Shown here one piece after another: positions 1-33,303 of a stretch of DNA of 37,857 bases. The translations under genes were made by a program, and so were the position numbers. Under the pieces are notes generated by a model. That model saw nothing but the letters and a program-made list of their open reading frames with translations, was not told the origin of the DNA and did not search any database. Each line of letters starts with the position of its first letter. The first letter of the stretch is position 1. Source of the DNA: Candidatus Liptonbacteria bacterium (GTDB lineage: Bacteria > Patescibacteriota > Minisyncoccia > UBA6257 > 2-01-FULL-56-20); contig JACRFR010000045.1 in the NCBI GenBank assembly GCA_016212635.1, positions 1-37,857 on the forward strand, written 5' to 3'.

Positions 1-480
1 GTCGTAGCCTTGGTGGGCCATTACCCCGCCAACTAGCTGATCGGGCCTAGGCCGATCTCGGAGCGTCTTGCGACTTTAATCGTACCTCGCTGCTGCAAGG
101 CACCGCTGATTTACGCAGATTATTACGCTGATTTACGCAGATGAATTTTTGAATCCATCCGCGGCTATCCGCGTGTATTTTCTATCTGCGTTTATCCGCG
201 GTGCTTCACAATAGTGAAGCACGATACCATCGGGAATTACCTCACCTTTCGATGAGCTATGCCCGACTCCGAGGTACGTACCAGGGTGTTACTAACTCGT
301 TCGCCGCTGCGCGCGCACAGCGCGCTCATCAGCGAATTACAAATTTATTACGAATTTACGAATTCGCAAATTCGGTTTTTATTCGTTATTCGTTGATAGC
401 GTGCTGCGCACGCACCGCTCGACTTGCATGCCTTATCCACGCCGCCAGCGTTCATCCTGGACCAGGATCAAATCCTCTGA
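1..480 (-). rRNA. rrs: 16S rRNA, 5' ~480 nt (gene continues past window start), with two large hairpin expansions
   Basis: The reverse complement of 440-478 reads AGAGGATTTGATCCTGGTCCAGGATGAACGCTGGCGGCGTG, the universal 16S 5' end. The reverse complement of 1-38 reads AGCTAGTTGGCGGGGTAATGGCCCACCAAGGCTACGAC (E. coli ~240-290). The span is ~480 nt versus ~290 nt in E. coli. Confidence 0.9.
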
Positions 481-1585: not shown

Positions 1586-2326
1586 ATGAAGCGTATCATC
1601 ATGGAAATTCGAGCTGGGACTGGCGGAGACGAAGCTGGGCTTTTCGCCGGAGATCTGACGCGCATGTACCAGCGCTATGCCGCCAAGCGAGGCTGGGCGT
1701 TCAATATCCTGGATTCTAACGAGTCCTCCTTGAATGGCTATAAATCGCTAGTGGCCGAAATCTCCGCCGGAGGCGGACCCTCCTCCGGAGGGCGCGGTCC
1801 CTATGATGATTTGAAACAAGAGTCGGGCGTGCACCGGGTACAACGTATCCCTAAAACCGAAAAAGCTGGGCGGGTACATACTTCCACCGCGACCGTGGCG
1901 GTCCTGCCGATGGTGGAGCCCAAGCAAGTGGAAATTCGAGACAGCGATCTGGAAGTCAGCTTCTCCCGTGCCGGCGGCCCGGGCGGGCAAAACGTGAACA
2001 AGATCGAGTCGGCGGTCCGAATCCTGCATAAGCCTACCGGTATCGTTATCTCCTGCCGAGTGGAGCGTTCCCAGTATGCCAACCGCGAGCGGGCATTGGA
2101 GATCCTGCGCGCAAAACTTTTTGAGGCGCAGCAAACCAGAGACACGGGCTCGGTCGGCGACCTGCGCCGGGAGCAGATCGGCTCCGCCGACCGTTCGGAA
2201 AAGATCCGGACCTACAACTTCCCGGACGACCGAATTACTGACCACCGTATCGGTAAAAAGTGGCACAACATCGAAAAGATCATGGAGGGCGAGCTGGATC
2301 CGATAATTAAGGCATTTTCGCAGTAG
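1586..2326 (+). CDS. prfA: Peptide chain release factor 1 lacking N-terminal domain 1 (~246 aa)
   Basis: IRAGTGGDEAGLFA, RIPKTE (P-x-T tripeptide), GGPGGQNVNK (GGQ) and RTYNFPDDRITDHRI are present. The ORF track gives 1529..2326; the start was trimmed because of the internal promoter. There is no coding room upstream for domain 1. Confidence 0.85.
   Translation: MKRIIMEIRAGTGGDEAGLFAGDLTRMYQRYAAKRGWAFNILDSNESSLNGYKSLVAEISAGGGPSSGGRGPYDDLKQESGVHRVQRIPKTEKAGRVHTSTATVAVLPMVEPKQVEIRDSDLEVSFSRAGGPGGQNVNKIESAVRILHKPTGIVISCRVERSQYANRERALEILRAKLFEAQQTRDTGSVGDLRREQIGSADRSEKIRTYNFPDDRITDHRIGKKWHNIEKIMEGELDPIIKAFSQ
1761..1790. repeat. In-frame CTCCGG/CCGGAG palindrome cluster inside prfA
   Basis: tctccgccggaggcggaccctcctccggag encodes the extra segment SAGGGPSSGG, between the conserved EIS and the HRVQR block. 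Confidence 0.5.
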
Positions 2327-2392
2327 CAAGTTTCTCCTTCTCCTTTTTTCAAGGAGTAAAATTGCTATATACTCAACTCGCTGGAAGCTGAG

Positions 2393-2929
2393 TCAAGTCG
2401 CGCTTAGAATTTTTAGTTTGATTTCCTTACCGCCGATCAGGAGCGGTGCGACATCCTCTGCTTTCTTGCCTAAGAGCGCCCGGCCCAGCGGCGCTTTGGG
2501 AGTTATCACCAGAACGTTCTGGCCATCAACTTCCGCCACCGTGCCGCCACTCCCATTTAGCACCAGGTGCCAAGCCGTTTTACCCTCGCGCTCCACGGAA
2601 ACCAGCGAACCCGGCTGGATTGTTTCGCCAGCCGGAGCATCTCCATACTCTCCCCTTGGCCGATCGGCCAAGGGGAGATTATGAGTTTGGCCTGAAGCCT
2701 GCACCTGTAATCTCACCAATTCCCTAATGGCCAGCTCCTTGTCCTGGATTAGCGTTACGAGTTCCCCGGCGCGCACCTGCATCTGGGCGCGGGTGGTGTC
2801 GCTATGGGATTCCATGGCACCGGGTGCCTCTTGCGCCGCCCGCCGGGTGTCTTCCAAATTCCGCTTCAACTCCGCCTCTTCCTCACGAATCTTTTGCAGT
2901 ATCGCTTTGAGTACCAATTGCTTATTCAT
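2393..2929 (-). CDS. GreA/GreB-family protein (Gre-like C-terminal domain, atypical N-terminal coiled coil)
   Basis: The C-terminus ITPKAPLGRALLGKKAEDV is Gre-like. The N-terminus is a charged coiled coil. The gene ends with TGA. Confidence 0.6.
   Translation of the reverse strand: MNKQLVLKAILQKIREEEAELKRNLEDTRRAAQEAPGAMESHSDTTRAQMQVRAGELVTLIQDKELAIRELVRLQVQASGQTHNLPLADRPRGEYGDAPAGETIQPGSLVSVEREGKTAWHLVLNGSGGTVAEVDGQNVLVITPKAPLGRALLGKKAEDVAPLLIGGKEIKLKILSAT
2650..2677. repeat. 28-bp perfect palindrome embedded in frame in the Gre-like gene
   Basis: ctccccttggccgatcggccaaggggag is self-complementary and encodes part of NLPLADRPRGEYG. Confidence 0.7.
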
Positions 2930-2940
2930 GCTTGGTGTAG

Positions 2941-3459
2941 CTAACGCAAATCTTCCTTGACCGATTTCACTTGCAACAATTCCAACAATTCCAAAGACAG
3001 ACCGGAAGCGTATAAAGCATCCGCTTTGAGCAGCTCTTCCTCAATGCCAACATGAGGAATATCTCTAAGTTCCGCGACGCTAACCCAGCGATAGTCGGAA
3101 AAATCGGCGCTGATAGTGACCGGACCCTCTTCCTCCACTTCGCAAAGGTAGGAGAATGACTTGCTGGTTTGCCCGTCGGGACGATGAATTGCTTTGTCTT
3201 TCAGTAATATTTTTCCCGACTTCAACGCCAACCCCGCCTCTTCCTTAACTTCCTTGATCAGGGTTTCTTCGATGGTGTCGTTGCCCTCTACCTTGCCGCC
3301 TGGGAAAGTGTACATCCCGGGATAAGCGTGCTCGCACTCGGAACGTTTGAGCACCAAGTACTTGCCGGCGTTGTTCCGAATCACCGCCACCGCCGTAACA
3401 ATGTGTAACTTGTCCGTCTTAGCGTAGGACATCGTCCGTATATTCGCGTTATTTGCCAA
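2941..3459 (-). CDS. Nudix hydrolase
   Basis: Nudix box GGKVEGNDTIEETLIKEVKEEAGL. An alternative start lies at 3432 (MSYAK). The direct repeat tattcgcgttatt occurs twice at 3441-3474. Confidence 0.8.
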   Translation of the reverse strand: MANNANIRTMSYAKTDKLHIVTAVAVIRNNAGKYLVLKRSECEHAYPGMYTFPGGKVEGNDTIEETLIKEVKEEAGLALKSGKILLKDKAIHRPDGQTSKSFSYLCEVEEEGPVTISADFSDYRWVSVAELRDIPHVGIEEELLKADALYASGLSLELLELLQVKSVKEDLR

Positions 3460-3484: not shown

Positions 3485-4546
3485 CTACTCCAACACCTCC
3501 GCCACTTGTCGAATGAAACTCACCACCACCGCGGGCGGCAGAAGACTGTAAGACGGCACACCCTCATCGTCCTTTACCACCCACGGCTCTTCCTTGACCG
3601 TAATTTGCCCCGTGCTTTCGTTTATCTCATAAGCGTAGGCGGGTGTAATCTCATAATCGTCAACATACTCCAGGGCCCGGTCGGCCGGCAGGGCGTTGCG
3701 TAAATACACCTTGGGCAAACCCTGGAGCTCCAAAAGGCGGTCGAAGATCTGGCCGTCCACCTCCAACCTGGCACGGATAGGTTCAATGCCCAAGCGATCG
3801 CCTTCTTTGGGCACCATGCGCGCTCCGTTGCACCCCGTCGCGTTACACTTCAGATAAAACTCTTTTTGTTCGGCATCATAACCAACTTCCTTGGTGGCCA
3901 AAAGTCGCGTATTGCGCGGCGTTTTACAGATAGGGCAAATTACTCGGTATTTGATGCGCTCGTCGATTATCGCATGCGGCAAGCTGATAAACACCAGAAA
4001 GTCGGGATCATTGCGATAACCGATCAGATCCCGCAAGTGCAGGGCGTAGCTGATCTGATCCAAGCCCCGCGGAAAGCCATCAATGAACACTGCCTGTCGC
4101 GGCCGCCGGCTAATTTCGTATTTGAGCAATGCCACGATCAGTTCCGATGATATCAGTTTTTCCTGACTGCGACCTTCGATCAAGTCAAAAGTCTCTTCTA
4201 CCGTGTGAAAACCGCGGTAGTTTTTATTCAGGAAGTCGGAGAGTTCCTGTTTGCGCGCGGGATTTGCCAAACTGTCGTGAATATCTCGGACAATGTCCCC
4301 CACTGCCACGTGGCCAATGTGTTCCGCGCCCACCGCCTCCATAAATAATTTGGAATAAGTCCCTTTGCCGGAATTTTTCTTACCGATTAAATAACCCACG
4401 AAGGTCTGGTCTGATAAATGCTTCCTAATCTTAGCTATAGCCTCTCCGCACTTGGCGTCAAAGTAGACACGCCGATCCGCCGGATCGTTTAAATTAAAGC
4501 GCTGGGTGACTCCCGCAGTTTTAGTTTTGTGAATCGGGAAATCCAT
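3485..4546 (-). CDS. Adenylate kinase-family protein with N- and C-terminal extensions
   Basis: P-loop GKKNSGKGT, IDGFPRG, and a LID-like RVICPICKTPRN...CNATGCNG are present. It is 353 aa versus ~215 aa for canonical Adk. Confidence 0.6.
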   Translation of the reverse strand: MDFPIHKTKTAGVTQRFNLNDPADRRVYFDAKCGEAIAKIRKHLSDQTFVGYLIGKKNSGKGTYSKLFMEAVGAEHIGHVAVGDIVRDIHDSLANPARKQELSDFLNKNYRGFHTVEETFDLIEGRSQEKLISSELIVALLKYEISRRPRQAVFIDGFPRGLDQISYALHLRDLIGYRNDPDFLVFISLPHAIIDERIKYRVICPICKTPRNTRLLATKEVGYDAEQKEFYLKCNATGCNGARMVPKEGDRLGIEPIRARLEVDGQIFDRLLELQGLPKVYLRNALPADRALEYVDDYEITPAYAYEINESTGQITVKEEPWVVKDDEGVPSYSLLPPAVVVSFIRQVAEVLE

Positions 4547-6615: not shown

Positions 6616-6724
6616 TTGAATTACGAAACTCCATCCTCCCCCTTGTTTAAGGGGGAGCCAGAGGGGGTCCTGGATTCTAGACCCCGCCTGACCTCGGGCA
6701 CAAAGTTACCAGTTTCGTAATTCC
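6616..6724. mobile_element. MITE-like element with ~13-17-bp terminal inverted repeats (GAATTACGAAACT)
   Basis: gaattacgaaact at 6618-6630 is the reverse complement of agtttcgtaattc at 6711-6723. There is an internal CCTCCCCC...GGGGGAG hairpin. Confidence 0.45.
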
Positions 6725-7673: not shown

Positions 7674-8242
7674 TTAACCGGCAACCCATAAGCCGGATTC
7701 TGTCCCCTCTCGCCTACGGCGAGAACGCTGATTCACGCCGATTTCTGCGCCGATTCACGCTAATGGGCTAGTCCCCATCTGCACTTATCTGGGTGTTTTA
7801 TCCGCGTTAATCCGCGTCTAGTCTGCGCTTATCCGCGATCTTGTAGTAGACAAGAGAGTGATGATCATTTATCTGGGCCCTCGATTACTCTCGGGCTCAA
7901 GCGAGCACTCCGCGCGCGCAGCGCGCTCATCAGCGAATTGCAAATGAAAACCGAATTTACGAATTCGTATATTCGTAACCGATTCGTTATTCGTTGATAA
8001 CGTGCTGCGCACGCGACACGACTCTTGCGCCCAGTAAGGGTTTAGCCGTTTCACTTTCGCCTTACGGCGAAATTATTCCCGAAGGAATTCCCTCGGCTTT
8101 CGCCTCGGGACGTCTCTGTTCGCACCTCTAAGCTTGCGCTCGACGGCTGTTAGCCGCTACCTTTGGTCCCGCTAAGCGGGACCGGGTGTCCGGACTTTCC
8201 TATCCCGCCGAGGCGGGATCGATCATCTAGGTTGCCAGCTGC
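7674..8242 (-). ncRNA. rnpB: RNase P RNA (bacterial type A-like core) with ~170-200 nt of extra helices
   Basis: In RNA sense, GGAAAGTCCGG is the reverse complement of 8190-8200, GCTTGAGCCC of 7893-7902, and ACAGAATCCGGCTTAT of 7688-7703. P1 can form between CTGGCAACC (5') and GGTTGCCGG (3'). Confidence 0.85.
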
Positions 8243-8298: not shown

Positions 8299-8346
8299 TG
8301 TTCGAGGCCCGACCACGAACAGTAGTGTTCGAGGTCGGGCCTCGAT
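8299..8346. repeat. REP-like hairpin, GAGGTCGGGCC family (copy a)
   Basis: ttcgaggcccgacc ... ggtcgggcctcga inverted repeat, intergenic. Confidence 0.7.
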
Positions 8347-8355
8347 ACATGATAA

Positions 8356-9168
8356 TTAAAATTTAGCCTTCCCCGTCAACTCGATGATTCTCTTAAACTC
8401 CTTCGGCCTCAAACTGGCCGCACCGACCAGAACACCGTCAATTTCGGGGTGGTTTAAATAACTTTGTGCATTTTTGACGTTGACCGAACCGCCGTAGAGG
8501 ACGGGGGTGGTGAGTAGAGAGTAGCGAGTAGAGAGTAGAGATTTAATGGAACGGATCATTTCTACTACATCCGCAGGTTTTTCCAAACCTCCCCCTTCCC
8601 CCTCCTTAGCAAGGAGGGGCTTGGGGAGGTTGGTCGATATAGCCCAGACGGGCTCGTAGGCGAGGATTAAGCGAGTAGCGGGTGGGGAGTAGGGAGTAGA
8701 GTTGATACCGGAGAGACAGGCACGAAGTTGAGAGGCGACAAACTTCTTCGAGGCAGCAATCCCCTGCCTGCGAATTGCGAATGTTTCGCCGACACAGAGA
8801 ATCACCTTGAGGCCGGCCCGGAGCGCGGCTTGAACTTTTTTCGCTACCATCTCGTCCGTCTCCCCCATCGCTCGCCGCTCGGAGTGACCTAGAATGACGT
8901 ATTTTGCGCCAAGCTTTTTAAGCATGGCCGGAGAAACTTCGCCGGTGAATGGTCCCGATGCTACCTCTGGCCCGCAGTTTTGGGCCCCTAGGGAGAAGCG
9001 GGCAGAGAGTAGTGAGTAGAGAGTAGAGGAAAGAAATGGGAACGGTGGGCAAATAACCACTTTGGCGTGCTTGTTCTTATCCGCCGCCACTCCTGCCGCG
9101 CGGGCCAGCTTTTGGGCCTCGGCGTAAGTAGTCGGATTCATCTTCCAGTTAGCGATAATTAGTTTCAT
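8356..9168 (-). CDS. tpiA: Triosephosphate isomerase
   Basis: ANWKMN, GHSERR, YEPVWAI, YGGSV and GAASL motifs are all intact. Confidence 0.92.
   Translation of the reverse strand: MKLIIANWKMNPTTYAEAQKLARAAGVAADKNKHAKVVICPPFPFLSSTLYSLLSARFSLGAQNCGPEVASGPFTGEVSPAMLKKLGAKYVILGHSERRAMGETDEMVAKKVQAALRAGLKVILCVGETFAIRRQGIAASKKFVASQLRACLSGINSTPYSPPATRLILAYEPVWAISTNLPKPLLAKEGEGGGLEKPADVVEMIRSIKSLLSTRYSLLTTPVLYGGSVNVKNAQSYLNHPEIDGVLVGAASLRPKEFKRIIELTGKAKF
8586..8630. repeat. Nested 45-bp palindrome embedded in frame in tpiA
   Basis: aacctcccc..cccctccttagcaaggagggg..ggggaggtt encodes NLPKPLLAKEGEGGGLEKP, ~10 aa longer than the usual loop after the YEPVWAI motif. Confidence 0.7.
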
Positions 9169-17814: not shown

Positions 17815-18246
17815 TCATATCCCCAACTCCCCCAACTTCTCCGCGATCTCTTCCGAGGCGCCTTCGGTTTTCTGTTTATATAGCCGCCATACCTCGGAGT
17901 CCCAAATTTCTATGCGATTGTAGAGCCCGGCGACGACCACGGCGCGCTTTAAGCCGGCATACTTGCGCAGGTAGTCCGGTACCAGGATCCGTCCCTGGCT
18001 ATCCAGTTCTACATCCATCGCTCCGGCCAGCATTAAACGCGAGAAGGCGCGGGAGTCGGCCCGGGCCAGCGGCAGAGCCACCAATTTTTCCGCCAAGATC
18101 TGCCACTCTTTAGCGGTAAAGACGAACAGGCAGCTATCCAGGCCGCGGGTGATGATCGCTCCTCCCGTTAACTTTTCCCTAAACTTCGCCGGGATGGCGA
18201 CTCGACCTTTGCTGTCTAAATTGTGTTGATATTCGCCGAGTAGCAT
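17815..18246 (-). CDS. mraZ: Transcriptional regulator MraZ
   Basis: MLLGEYQHNLDSKGRVAIPAKFR, and a second SpoVT/AbrB-like repeat DSQGRILVP. Confidence 0.9.
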   Translation of the reverse strand: MLLGEYQHNLDSKGRVAIPAKFREKLTGGAIITRGLDSCLFVFTAKEWQILAEKLVALPLARADSRAFSRLMLAGAMDVELDSQGRILVPDYLRKYAGLKRAVVVAGLYNRIEIWDSEVWRLYKQKTEGASEEIAEKLGELGI

Positions 18247-18252
18247 GGAAAT

Positions 18253-18337
18253 AGTGAGTGGCGAGTAGCGAGTAGCGTGGCGAGTAGCGAGGACCCATCT
18301 TCCATCTTTCCCTACTCTCTACTCCCTACTCTCTACT
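18253..18337. repeat. Long imperfect hairpin built from GAGTAG / CTACTC hexamer repeats, abutting the mraZ start codon
   Basis: gtgagtggcgagtagcgagtagcgtggcgagtagcgagg opposes ccctactctctactccctactctctac. Confidence 0.7.
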
Positions 18338-18518
18338 TGCTTCTTGATGTGGAGTAGAGGGCAGGCGGTAGGCACGAGGTCGCTGTTTGGCCTGGGGGAG
18401 GTCGACAGTTGGTCTGTCCACCGCCCGCCCTCCGGACTTGTGGTATTTGGGATCTCTTTTTTTATGAGTGCGGTTGGCCGTTGGACCAATCCGTAACTTT
18501 GTCCCCAGAATGGGGTAC

Positions 18519-18585: not shown

Positions 18586-18749
18586 AAAGCGGCTCGGACG
18601 GAATGCGAGCATCGAAAATGTATTGAATTACCTACACTACTCTCCTTTTCGCCCAGCTACTTATCAACAAGTTATGAACTTGCCCCGTCGGGAACAAGCG
18701 GGAGTGGATTCCCCACCCGGTTAAACCACCCATGGGGCGGTTTGTAATT

Positions 18750-18792
18750 TTCCGAGGTCGGGCCTCTAAAATTCCCCGAGGTCCGACCTCTC
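18750..18792. repeat. REP-like hairpin, GAGGTCGGGCC family (copy b)
   Basis: ccgaggtcgggcctc taaaattcccc gaggtccgacctc. Confidence 0.7.
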
Positions 18793-18944
18793 ACATTCAA
18801 TGCCCAACGCTGGGACCAGCGATTTCACTTGGACGTCATTCCGGCCCTCGAGCCGGAATCTACGTCTTGCAAACACGCAAAATATGGATTCGGAAGCAAG
18901 CTCAGAACGACACAAAAACAGTGAGGCGCGCAGGTCCTATTGAA

Positions 18945-22037: not shown

Positions 22038-22083
22038 AAACCACGGGGCGACCCGGGGCGACCTTCGTGCTGTCATATAGCTT

Positions 22084-22123
22084 CCGAGGTCGGGCCTTGG
22101 GGAATTCTTAAGGCCCGACCTCG
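22084..22123. repeat. REP-like hairpin, GAGGTCGGGCC family (copy c, inverted loop)
   Basis: ccgaggtcgggcctt ggggaattctt aaggcccgacctcg. Confidence 0.7.
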
Positions 22124-22188
22124 ATGAATTCGAACCCCGCATCTTATTTCCGCCGGCTCATGAGTAGTGGCTGATTGAGGACGGCGTT

Positions 22189-23467: not shown

Positions 23468-23520
23468 TTTATAATTATCAACGAATTGCGAACTGGTTGC
23501 GAATTTTCGAATTCAATTCT

Positions 23521-23592
23521 TCGAGGTCGGGCCTCAAAAATCCCCGACCGTGCCCGCCGTAGCTTTTCAGCGTAGGCGGGAGGCCCGACCTC
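23521..23592. repeat. REP-like hairpin, GAGGTCGGGCC family (copy d, with nested second hairpin) in the rplJ-rplL spacer
   Basis: tcgaggtcgggcctc ... gcccgccgtagc ttttca gcgtaggcggg ... gaggcccgacctc. Confidence 0.7.
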
Positions 23593-23650
23593 TAACATTC
23601 AGATTCGTAGATTCGCAACAGATTCTTTATTCGTTGATGTTAATTATTAC

Positions 23651-24215: not shown

Positions 24216-24292
24216 TTTTCGTATTTCGTAGCTAATTTGCGACCTTTTCGTATTTCGTAGCTAATTTGCGACCTTTTCGTATTTCGTAGCTA
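24216..24292. repeat. 29-bp tandem repeat, 2.65 copies
   Basis: ttttcgtatttcgtagctaatttgcgacc occurs at 24216-24244 and 24245-24273, with a partial third copy to 24292. Confidence 0.9.
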
Positions 24293-24296
24293 AAAA

Positions 24297-31590: not shown

Positions 31591-31731
31591 TCGTTCCTCG
31601 CGTATCCGACATTTTCCATTTTATCCTTGAGCCGTCGGCCCTCCTTCGCTAAAGCTTCGGCGGGGCAAGTCGGAATTTCGCTATCCCCTTTTCACTACTC
31701 TCTACTCGCCACTCACTACTCACTTTCCTTG

Positions 31732-32951: not shown

Positions 32952-32977
32952 TTGTCCCTACTCCCTACTCCCCATCC

Positions 32978-33053
32978 TGGAGCCACCTCCCGGATTCGAA
33001 CCGGGGACATACACTTTACAAAAGTGTCGCTCTACCAGCTGAGCTAAGGTGGC
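32978..33053 (-). tRNA. tRNA-Thr (anticodon UGU), CCA end encoded
   Basis: In the reverse complement: acceptor GCCACCT/AGGTGGC, anticodon loop TTTGTAA, T-arm CCCGG-TTCGAAT-CCGGG, U73, CCA. Confidence 0.85.
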
Positions 33054-33068: not shown

Positions 33069-33185
33069 CACCTCCCCTCGCCCCTCCTTAGAACAGGAGG
33101 GGGACTACACCTCCCCTCACCCCTCCTTAGAACAGGAGGGGGACTACACCTCCCCTCGCCCCTCCTTGGAAAAGGAGGGGAAATG
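33069..33185. repeat. 39-bp tandem repeat x3, each unit containing a CCCCTCCT-N7-GGAGGGG hairpin
   Basis: cacctcccctcgcccctccttagaacaggagggggacta is repeated at 33069, 33108 and 33147 (the last unit is diverged). Confidence 0.9.
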
Positions 33186-33262
33186 AACTGTCCCTAGGTT
33201 AGCAAAAACGGCCCGAAAATCCAATGAGTTCGGCGCAAAATACTGGGAAACCATTAATTTTT

Positions 33263-33303
33263 AGAGGTCGGGCCTTAGAAAATCTCCCAAGGCCCGACCT
33301 CGG
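33263..33303. repeat. REP-like hairpin, GAGGTCGGGCC family (copy e)
   Basis: agaggtcgggcctt agaaaatctccc aaggcccgacctcgg. Confidence 0.7.

Follow-up and report, generated by a model that had tools for sequence, protein, structure and literature searches.

Palindromic heptad-repeat elements in the 16S rRNA and RNase P RNA genes of a Patescibacteria contig: probable ORF-less members of a dispersed, nuclease-associated family

Why should two unrelated stable RNAs of one bacterium carry the same extra blocks of sequence? The question is raised by the DNA analyzed here, an entire contig of 37,857 nt (hereafter the window) from a bacterium of the Patescibacteria (Candidate Phyla Radiation, CPR). 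A first-pass annotation had noted a block at 104-200, within the 16S rRNA gene, and a related block at 7726-7838, inside the gene for RNase P RNA (rnpB), and had read them as expansion modules belonging to these two RNAs. On the basis of the current results, the two blocks are indeed homologous, but the same element is found across many unrelated Patescibacteria genes, and the idea of modules peculiar to, or exchanged between, the two RNAs is not supported. We consider it quite probable that both blocks are copies, lacking an open reading frame (ORF), of a dispersed Patescibacteria family of palindromes, that they are relics or derivatives of a nuclease-bearing mobile cassette, and that they are tolerated at helix tips.

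Homology of the blocks is supported by their local alignment, which had a score of 41 (z 9.5) and exceeded all of 2000 dinucleotide shuffles (15.8 ± 2.7, maximum 31). The dodecamer GCYGATTYACGC occurs five times in the window at one mismatch or fewer, compared with 0.99 expected, and all four exact matches are confined to the 16S and rnpB blocks. On the plus strand, CGCNGAT heptads start at 104, 114, 126 and 136 in the 16S block and at 7726, 7736, 7748 and 7758 in the rnpB block, a spacing of 10, 12 and 10 nt common to both. They are followed by inverted ATCNGCG heptads at 157, 167, 184 and 194 in 16S and by six ATCNGCG-like units across 7777-7837 in rnpB, with loops of 17 nt and ~12 nt, respectively, between the arrays. 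Thus, the sub-repeats named by the first-pass annotation stand in the same order in both blocks, and the extra unit it had ascribed to rnpB is one additional double unit on one arm (six heptads versus four).

Both host genes are encoded by the minus strand. Of the 16S rRNA gene, which is cut by the contig end, the 5' part is present (1-483; Rfam SSU_rRNA_bacteria, 169 bits, model positions 1-280). Compared with the Rfam model, it carries 87 inserted nt at the tip of helix 6 (h6), and a further 126 nt extend the tip of helix 10 (h10), where covariance-model placement shows that the model has a 3-nt loop. The rnpB gene (7674-8238) is of bacterial type A (Rfam RF00010, RNaseP_bact_a, positions 1-367, E 3e-28): the match is full length, helices P1-P4, P15 and P18 align, and the conserved P4 strands GAGGAAAGUCCGG and ACAGAAnCCGGCUUA are present. 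Two large insertions keep its score, 91 bits, under the gathering score of 100: one sits on the tip of the P16/P17 arm, and the other, of ~150 nt, lies between the 3' strand of P2 (GAUCAUC) and the 3' strand of P4 (ACAGAA). The latter falls in a stretch that is unpaired in the RNase P model; this J2/4 stretch is the point from which helix P19 leaves in those RNAs that have a P19. The rnpB RNA also lacks most of model positions ~154-200, presumably the P13/P14 arm, which further lowers the Rfam score. Covariance-model placement therefore agrees with the earlier view that the blocks come on top of what normal 16S and RNase P RNAs contain and are not helices of ordinary length. No group I or group II intron ribozyme was found at either block with Rfam covariance models.

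The true units are longer than had been noted, extending over ~79-225 in 16S and ~7707-7855 in rnpB. The 16S element (79-225, minus strand) is a composite palindrome that makes up the whole of h10 as a single long hairpin, in which an outer stem (AUCGUGCUUC/GAGGUACGAU) leads to GUGAAGCAC and then to the heptad arms. In the sense of the RNA, its 5' arm has four CGCRGAU heptads (157-200, minus strand; heptad positions and arm profile search) and its 3' arm has four AUCNGCG heptads spaced 10/12/10 (104-142, minus strand; nhmmer arm profile, E 2e-13). The rnpB element (7707-7855, minus strand), placed by the covariance model and delimited by flanks shared with a foreign copy, occupies the P19 position and runs from UCUUGUCUACUACAAGAU through the arms to UUCUCGCCGUAGGCGAGA. 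Its 5' arm (7777-7837, minus strand) contains six CGCRGAU-like heptads, of which the inner two are degenerate, and its 3' arm (7726-7764, minus strand) four AUCNGCG-like heptads, again spaced 10/12/10 (arm profile, E 3e-12).

The inserts thus add irregular hairpins of ~147 nt at h10 and ~149 nt at the P19 position. Folding of 16S 66-240 gave -74.8 kcal/mol (z -7.9; z -7.2 for 95-210), and that of rnpB 7700-7862 gave -61.7 kcal/mol (z -4.6), whereas the rnpB core 7726-7838 alone was weaker (z -2.3); the long hairpins that had been proposed are therefore supported for both RNAs, in rnpB once the flanks are included. The stems are broken every 7-8 bp by mismatches and by loops of 2x2 to 4x4. We considered whether the flank hairpins are separate modules; the minimum-free-energy fold pairs both flanks into one long hairpin, and both foldings are possible. 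A conserved purine-purine mismatch between paired heptads was also considered as a structural feature of the RNA and was set aside, being partly an ascertainment effect of the search pattern and partly a result of the avoidance of an in-frame TGA in CGCTGAT.

To place the two copies in a wider context, one genome per prokaryotic species was scanned for the exact pattern GCYGATTYACGC-N10-GCYGATTYACGC, for which we estimate a chance expectation of ~0.1 in this collection. The pattern was found in 18 contigs, 14 of which belonged to Patescibacteria of many classes (including Saccharibacteria, Jorgensen-, Wolfe-, Uhr- and Nealsonbacteria, Paceibacterota and Parcubacteria), and the same scan of metagenome contigs gave at least 120 contigs. 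All copies share one plan: read in the sense of the transcript, an array built of CGCNGAU heptads leads through a short loop into an inverted one built of AUCNGCG heptads. The 5' arm has the form [CGCRGAU-n3-CGCRGAU]-n4/5-[CGCRGAU-n3-CGCRGAU] and the 3' arm the form [AUCNGCG-n3-AUCNGCG]-n5-[AUCNGCG-n3-AUCNGCG], so that the usual array is two double units with spacings of 10 and ~12 nt, often within further complementary flanks. The element is an imperfect palindrome of 80-165 nt and has no ORF in its short form. Variants have three or four double units, the 3' arm alone or, in intergenic copies, perfectly complementary CGCTGAT arms. Outside this group, one contig labelled Pseudomonadota (L011) carries tandem, non-palindromic arrays of ACGCTGATTTACGCGGATTGGA and one labelled Bacteroidetes (L009) a partial array. 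Either the heptad family may have relatives beyond the Patescibacteria, or the contigs may be mis-binned.

Most of the copies lie in frame within protein genes. Open frames of 150 aa or more enclose nine of the 14 genome copies and ~75 of the 122 metagenome copies among the matches listed, all in a single orientation, with an antisense open frame in four. Among these matches, 73 distinct host ORFs correspond to 97 Pfam families, mostly of housekeeping enzymes, including DnaG (10), class I aminoacyl-tRNA synthetases (9), DegT aminotransferases, IF2/LepA GTPases and ThrRS as well as helicases, TsaD, TatD, Mur ligases and Clp ATPases; GatB also hosts copies. The encoded peptide is of the type ...TQINAD.NADKRG..ISVNQR.NQRESA.... 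Only one of the six frames of the consensus element is open, and selection against stop codons can thus explain both the orientation and the frame of the copies in protein genes. In addition, the 22-nt period moves the reading frame by one with each double unit, and the third frame has a TAA, which accounts for the two double units per arm typical of genes and for the 6-nt spacer that a third unit needs. A profile of the element peptide, searched against a set of 5.8 billion proteins, gave 62 candidates and one hit and was thus uninformative.

Copies in RNA genes sit at helix tips or junctions. They were found at the h6 tip of 16S rRNA (L077, L079 and L133) and at a helix tip of 23S rRNA (L016, L065, L072 and L104), where 128 nt replace 21 at model positions ~1886-1907, which we infer to be helix 68. 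Other copies are located directly 5' of 16S (L044, L052, L057, L066, L076 and L098), in 23S leaders (L051 and L005/L116), in a spacer of an rRNA operon (L004) and in intergenic DNA. The 8-9 independent RNA-gene sites, including the two in the window, are all co-oriented with transcription, for which stop-codon avoidance cannot account. Some of the related CPR rRNA genes (L098 and L016/L065/L072) also carry group I introns. For example, the 16S match of L098 is divided between 432-1167 and 1846-3447; a group I intron is matched at 2450-2682 and, weakly, a group II intron at 3653-3740.

Both window copies have closer relatives in other organisms than in each other. For the 16S copy, the L051 23S leader, which holds two copies in tandem, provides one that is 80% identical over 146 nt, and this match takes in GUGARGCAC and the outer 10-bp stem that Rfam had aligned as h10; the whole of h10 (79-225) is thus probably element-derived, to judge from the alignment. 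The flanks of the rnpB copy are 88% identical to those of the L005 copy, ~130 nt upstream of the 23S gene of another organism. Common to the two are UCUUGUCUAC-N-ACAAGAU as the 5' flank and UUCUCGCCGUAGGCGAGA as the 3' flank, and the similarity stops exactly there, which sets the bounds of the element in rnpB at ~7707-7855. The possibility that L005 and L116 are orthologous rnpB loci was ruled out by this position upstream of 23S and by the lack of an RNase P match. Between the two window copies, identity reaches only ~68%, and their flanks differ, which argues against a direct exchange between the two genes. Since each of them is closer to a foreign 23S-leader copy than to its partner, 16S and rnpB appear to have been colonized independently by a dispersed family.

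Filled and empty sites could be compared in the GTPase LepA (EF4). Among the best 120 CPR homologs, at least five different positions carry the element signature, which most homologs lack. In the loop between ITIKMAPVRM and LNLIDTPGH, the spacer is 12 or 16 aa in 56 sequences, 26-51 aa in 22 and 167-188 aa in 18. The inserts of 26-51 aa belong to several different repeat families, which implies that several arm families use one hot spot; some of them are made of other repeat peptides (IQNSKSEI, EIRNSKLEI and QIKNSEF) resembling translated repeats of a second type, AATTCG, described below. The inserts of 167-188 aa consist of the 5'-arm peptide, a complete GxxExxY domain and the 3'-arm peptide. 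At the DNA level, L142 has four CGCAGAT heptads, the GxxExxY ORF and four ATCTGCG heptads, and heptads in these long forms are perfectly complementary. An equivalent layout was found in L143, L144 and the helicase gene of L093; in L001, the locus ends after the 5' arm. In total, ~20 clusters of Patescibacteria LepA/EF4 (741-823 aa; P0129-P0237; loci L142-L144 and L001) have an in-frame GxxExxY domain in the G-domain loop, and some of these proteins are labelled 'GxxExxY protein' by their sources. One of them, P0178, has the long form and a short element at a second site. Compared with the Aquifex LepA structure 2YWE, 157 residues of the long form replace five (chain positions 68-72), which we interpret as a beta-hairpin loop in the G domain. 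Thus, a palindromic cassette family with phased heptad arms exists, occupies many unrelated genes, is long, short or empty at orthologous sites and, in proteins, is read through.

The ORF of the long form matches TIGR04256 (positions 1-116, 125 bits; Pfam PF13366/PDDEXK_3), a family of the PD-(D/E)xK nuclease superfamily whose function is listed as unknown in a survey of that superfamily (PMC3424549). The GxxExxY domains have an invariant E27, D66, E76 and K78. When a GxxExxY profile was compared with PDB, the sole near-hits were to the catalytic core of T7 endonuclease I (E 0.15 and 1.0, not significant alone); in the E 0.15 match, the invariant E, D, E and K align with that core. A single GxxExxY sequence used as the query against PDB found nothing. 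We take the similarity to T7 endonuclease I as a lead, not a result. No transposase was seen in long forms with the same arms, in a search that was not exhaustive.

The window contains a second repeat type shared by the same two RNAs, which we refer to as module 1 (the heptad element being module 2). Module 1 is an ORF-less hairpin (z -7.0) with ACGAAU/AUUCG arms at the h6 tip of 16S (307-413, minus strand), and it is 84% identical to a copy that covariance-model placement puts on the P16/P17 arm tip in rnpB (7908-8014, minus strand); the earlier statement that both RNAs share two blocks is thus borne out. A third, module-1-like palindrome, detected by repeat search, is intergenic (23475-23638, no strand assigned) and has ACGAAT/ATTCG arms around a GAGGTCGGGCCTC hairpin. 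The L051 23S leader also has a module-1 copy (86% over 79 nt). In L110, a distant GxxExxY ORF (30% identical) lies between ACGAAT/ATTCG arrays of the module-1 type, and this cassette occupies the same GatB loop as a short module-2 copy in L018. Since module-1-type arms flank a GxxExxY gene there, both modules of the window can be understood as ORF-less members of two sister cassette families. The hairpin GAGGTCGGGCCTC is itself a dispersed and mostly intergenic family (8323-8342, 18739-18808, 22077-22137, 23507-23553 and 33255-33294), one copy of which is nested in the palindrome at 23475-23638.

How might such a cassette move? It would spread at the DNA level, and the GxxExxY nuclease is the likely mobilizing enzyme, for which the recognition sites may be the heptad arrays (approximately one heptad per helical turn) or the cruciform that they can form. 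Short forms might arise by loss of the ORF or be mobilized in trans. The copies at 16S h10 and at the RNase P P19 position would persist since these peripheral sites tolerate a protruding hairpin, which could be transcribed with the host RNA and then either kept as an extension or trimmed. The co-orientation of copies in RNA genes might reflect descent from ORF-bearing forms that depended on host transcription.

It should be noted that several points weigh against this interpretation. The GxxExxY protein is tied to mobilization by its association with the arms, and no GxxExxY match was found anywhere in the 37.8-kb window, whose copies are the ORF-less forms. Profile searches with both arms detected no further copy of the element in the contig, and no mobility event was seen within this genome, of which the window contig was the part analyzed. 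Inspection of the boundaries of ~100 copies revealed no obvious direct repeat of a target site. Many in-ORF copies have the 3' arm alone, and the hairpin is therefore not obligatory. The search pattern was taken from the window itself, which biases the subfamily and the heptad variants that were recovered. Finally, an empty-site comparison for rnpB was attempted by way of the triosephosphate isomerase (TIM) gene next to it and yielded no empty allele from a close relative: the nearest TIM homologs are 52-53% identical and the synteny of TIM and rnpB is not conserved.

Four other explanations of the blocks were weighed against the mobile family. According to the first, replication slippage of short repeats made expansion segments specific to this lineage grow within 16S h10 and rnpB, and these came to resemble each other by convergence. 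The number of units in the tandemly repeated arms does vary (four versus six heptads here, three or four double units elsewhere), and slippage has therefore probably modified copies after their insertion. As the origin of the blocks, however, it is hardly credible: the alignment (z 9.5) reaches unique flanks that are common to copies in other genes of other organisms, and among the matches listed, over 70 unrelated protein genes contain this 80-nt architecture. Direct exchange between 16S and rnpB of this genome, by gene conversion or recombination, would account for the presence of both modules in both genes in the same orientation and for the 84% identity of the module-1 copies. For module 2, however, the two window copies are ~68% identical with different flanks, compared with 80% between the 16S copy and L051 and 88% between the rnpB flanks and L005. 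Moreover, the L051 23S leader carries module 1 and two copies of module 2, so that co-occurrence characterizes the element families instead of 16S and rnpB. We regard exchange as very improbable.

The hairpins might instead be intervening sequences (IVS), cut out by RNase III-type processing to leave fragmented but functional RNAs. In its favor, the blocks are additional sequence at helix tips with long stems, and the 16S h10 block is an extra block at an rRNA helix tip with an extended stem (fold z -7.9); copies also adjoin mature rRNA ends in the leaders of L051, the L098 group and L005. Insertions in CPR rRNAs are reportedly excised, and IVS of 23S rRNA are said to be removed by RNase III. 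On the other hand, cleavage would do harm in mRNAs, in which the element is read through, and its stems, interrupted every 7-8 bp, should be poor substrates for RNase III. Excision of this kind is compatible with an origin from mobile elements, and we consider it rather unlikely, with some weight nonetheless. A further possibility is that the heptad arrays are beneficial to the host as binding sites of a conserved Patescibacteria protein that acts on RNA or DNA (for example, in assembly, localization or regulation) and are kept by selection. The conservation of the heptads across distant classes, the 10-12 nt spacing that puts the repeats on one face of the helix and the co-orientation of all 8-9 RNA-gene sites would be in accordance with such a role. 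However, presence, position and arm family vary freely among orthologs, copies decay (for example, the inner heptads of rnpB and the half elements), the element is linked to an ORF of a nuclease family, and the orientation in ORFs is explained by stop codons. We regard this explanation as improbable.

In behavior, the closest analog is the Rickettsia palindromic elements (RPE), which are likewise short palindromic repeats of several families. RPE are inserted in frame in unrelated housekeeping genes and translated as extra peptide loops (PMC10969869). In-frame palindromes in unrelated protein genes are also a property of the heptad family, but not of the two copies in the window. RPE have reportedly been found in RNA genes too. 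The family described here differs from RPE in its Patescibacteria hosts, its phased heptad arms, its GxxExxY long forms and its common one-arm half elements. Likeness to rRNA IVS, some of which carry ORFs, lies in the hairpin blocks at rRNA helix tips and in the patchy distribution; what differs is that the element also occurs in RNase P RNA and leaders as well as in frame within proteins, and that its stems are highly interrupted. A precedent for a genome-wide repeat in RNase P RNA is said to be provided by the STRR elements (short tandemly repeated repetitive sequences) of heterocyst-forming cyanobacteria, a genome-wide family of heptamers that reportedly lengthens helix P12 in rnpB. Both systems are short tandem heptanucleotide repeats that lengthen a peripheral helix of this RNA, but here the sites are J2/4 (the P19 position) and the P16/17 tip and not P12, the heptads are different, the arrays are inverted and there is a link to a nuclease ORF.

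As small, ORF-less and dispersed sequences with inverted terminal arms and longer, ORF-bearing relatives, the short forms also resemble miniature inverted-repeat transposable elements. They differ from these in that the long form, as far as the non-exhaustive search showed, has no DDE or other recognized transposase, only a 116-aa protein of the PD-(D/E)xK family, and in that insertion is mostly intragenic and in frame. With homing endonucleases, inteins and their ORF-less mini derivatives, the family shares a nuclease-family ORF placed in frame in conserved loops of essential genes and the existence of long, short and empty alleles; unlike these, it uses many sites instead of one cognate site, and the insert apparently stays in the protein. 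No intein splice-junction residues were present in the LepA inserts, which start with ...YHSDRG / HPAQ... and end with ...RESAQ|VEEYILN. In an incomplete search of the literature, we found no earlier description of the element in CPR bacteria, and a prior report is possible.

A bolder proposal, which we put forward tentatively and hold to be possible without favoring it, is that these cassettes form an undescribed class of selfish DNA in Patescibacteria. A PD-(D/E)xK (GxxExxY) gene would be bracketed by phased heptad arrays serving as its own recognition sites, would spread by cutting and copying into exposed loops, and would persist through being read through instead of being removed. It would appear as a domain-plus-linker insertion in essential proteins and as a helix extension in rRNA and RNase P RNA; different heptad families (among them CGCNGAT and ACGAAT) would be matched to different nuclease clades, and the window copies would be relics of a homing-like cycle.

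If the mobile family is real in the sense proposed, one mechanism could explain several oddities of CPR genomes, namely extra rRNA blocks, low-scoring RNase P RNAs and odd insertions in conserved proteins, and it would be a second, phylogenetically distant case beside RPE of selfish DNA absorbed into essential proteins and RNAs. Phased CGCNGAT/ATCNGCG heptads would then be a simple DNA signature for annotators, since such blocks depress covariance-model scores (as for rnpB, which falls under the Rfam threshold) and inflate protein lengths. The GxxExxY/PF13366 family would gain a testable role, and the insertions would mark positions that tolerate large inserts in 16S, 23S and RNase P RNAs and in LepA, GatB and DnaG.

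Several other repeats were observed in the window. The TIM gene (8356-9168), for whose protein no homolog exceeds 53% identity and the nearest named ones come from Liptonbacteria and Parcubacteria, contains an in-frame GC-rich hairpin, CCCCTCCTTAGCAAGGAGGGG, at 8590-8630. It encodes LPKPLLAKEGEGGG, an insertion of ~10-12 aa relative to most homologs, and hairpins of this type are also intergenic (958-1000, 6630-6670 and 33069-33195). A third heptad family, GAGTAGA/CTACTCT, occurs at 8490-8541, 8658-8708, 8985-9035, 18234-18342, 31676-31725 and 32953-32988. Its inverted pair at 18234-18342 forms a palindrome, and the three arrays inside the TIM ORF encode STLYSLL, STPYSPP and STRYSLL, the last of which is present at the same place in the TIM homolog P0011. 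Finally, two tandem arrays are perfect or near-perfect: one of 39 nt x 2.9 (33069-33195), which adjoins a tRNA gene at 32981-33053, and one of 29 nt x 2.7 with TTCGTATTTCGTA units (24216-24293).

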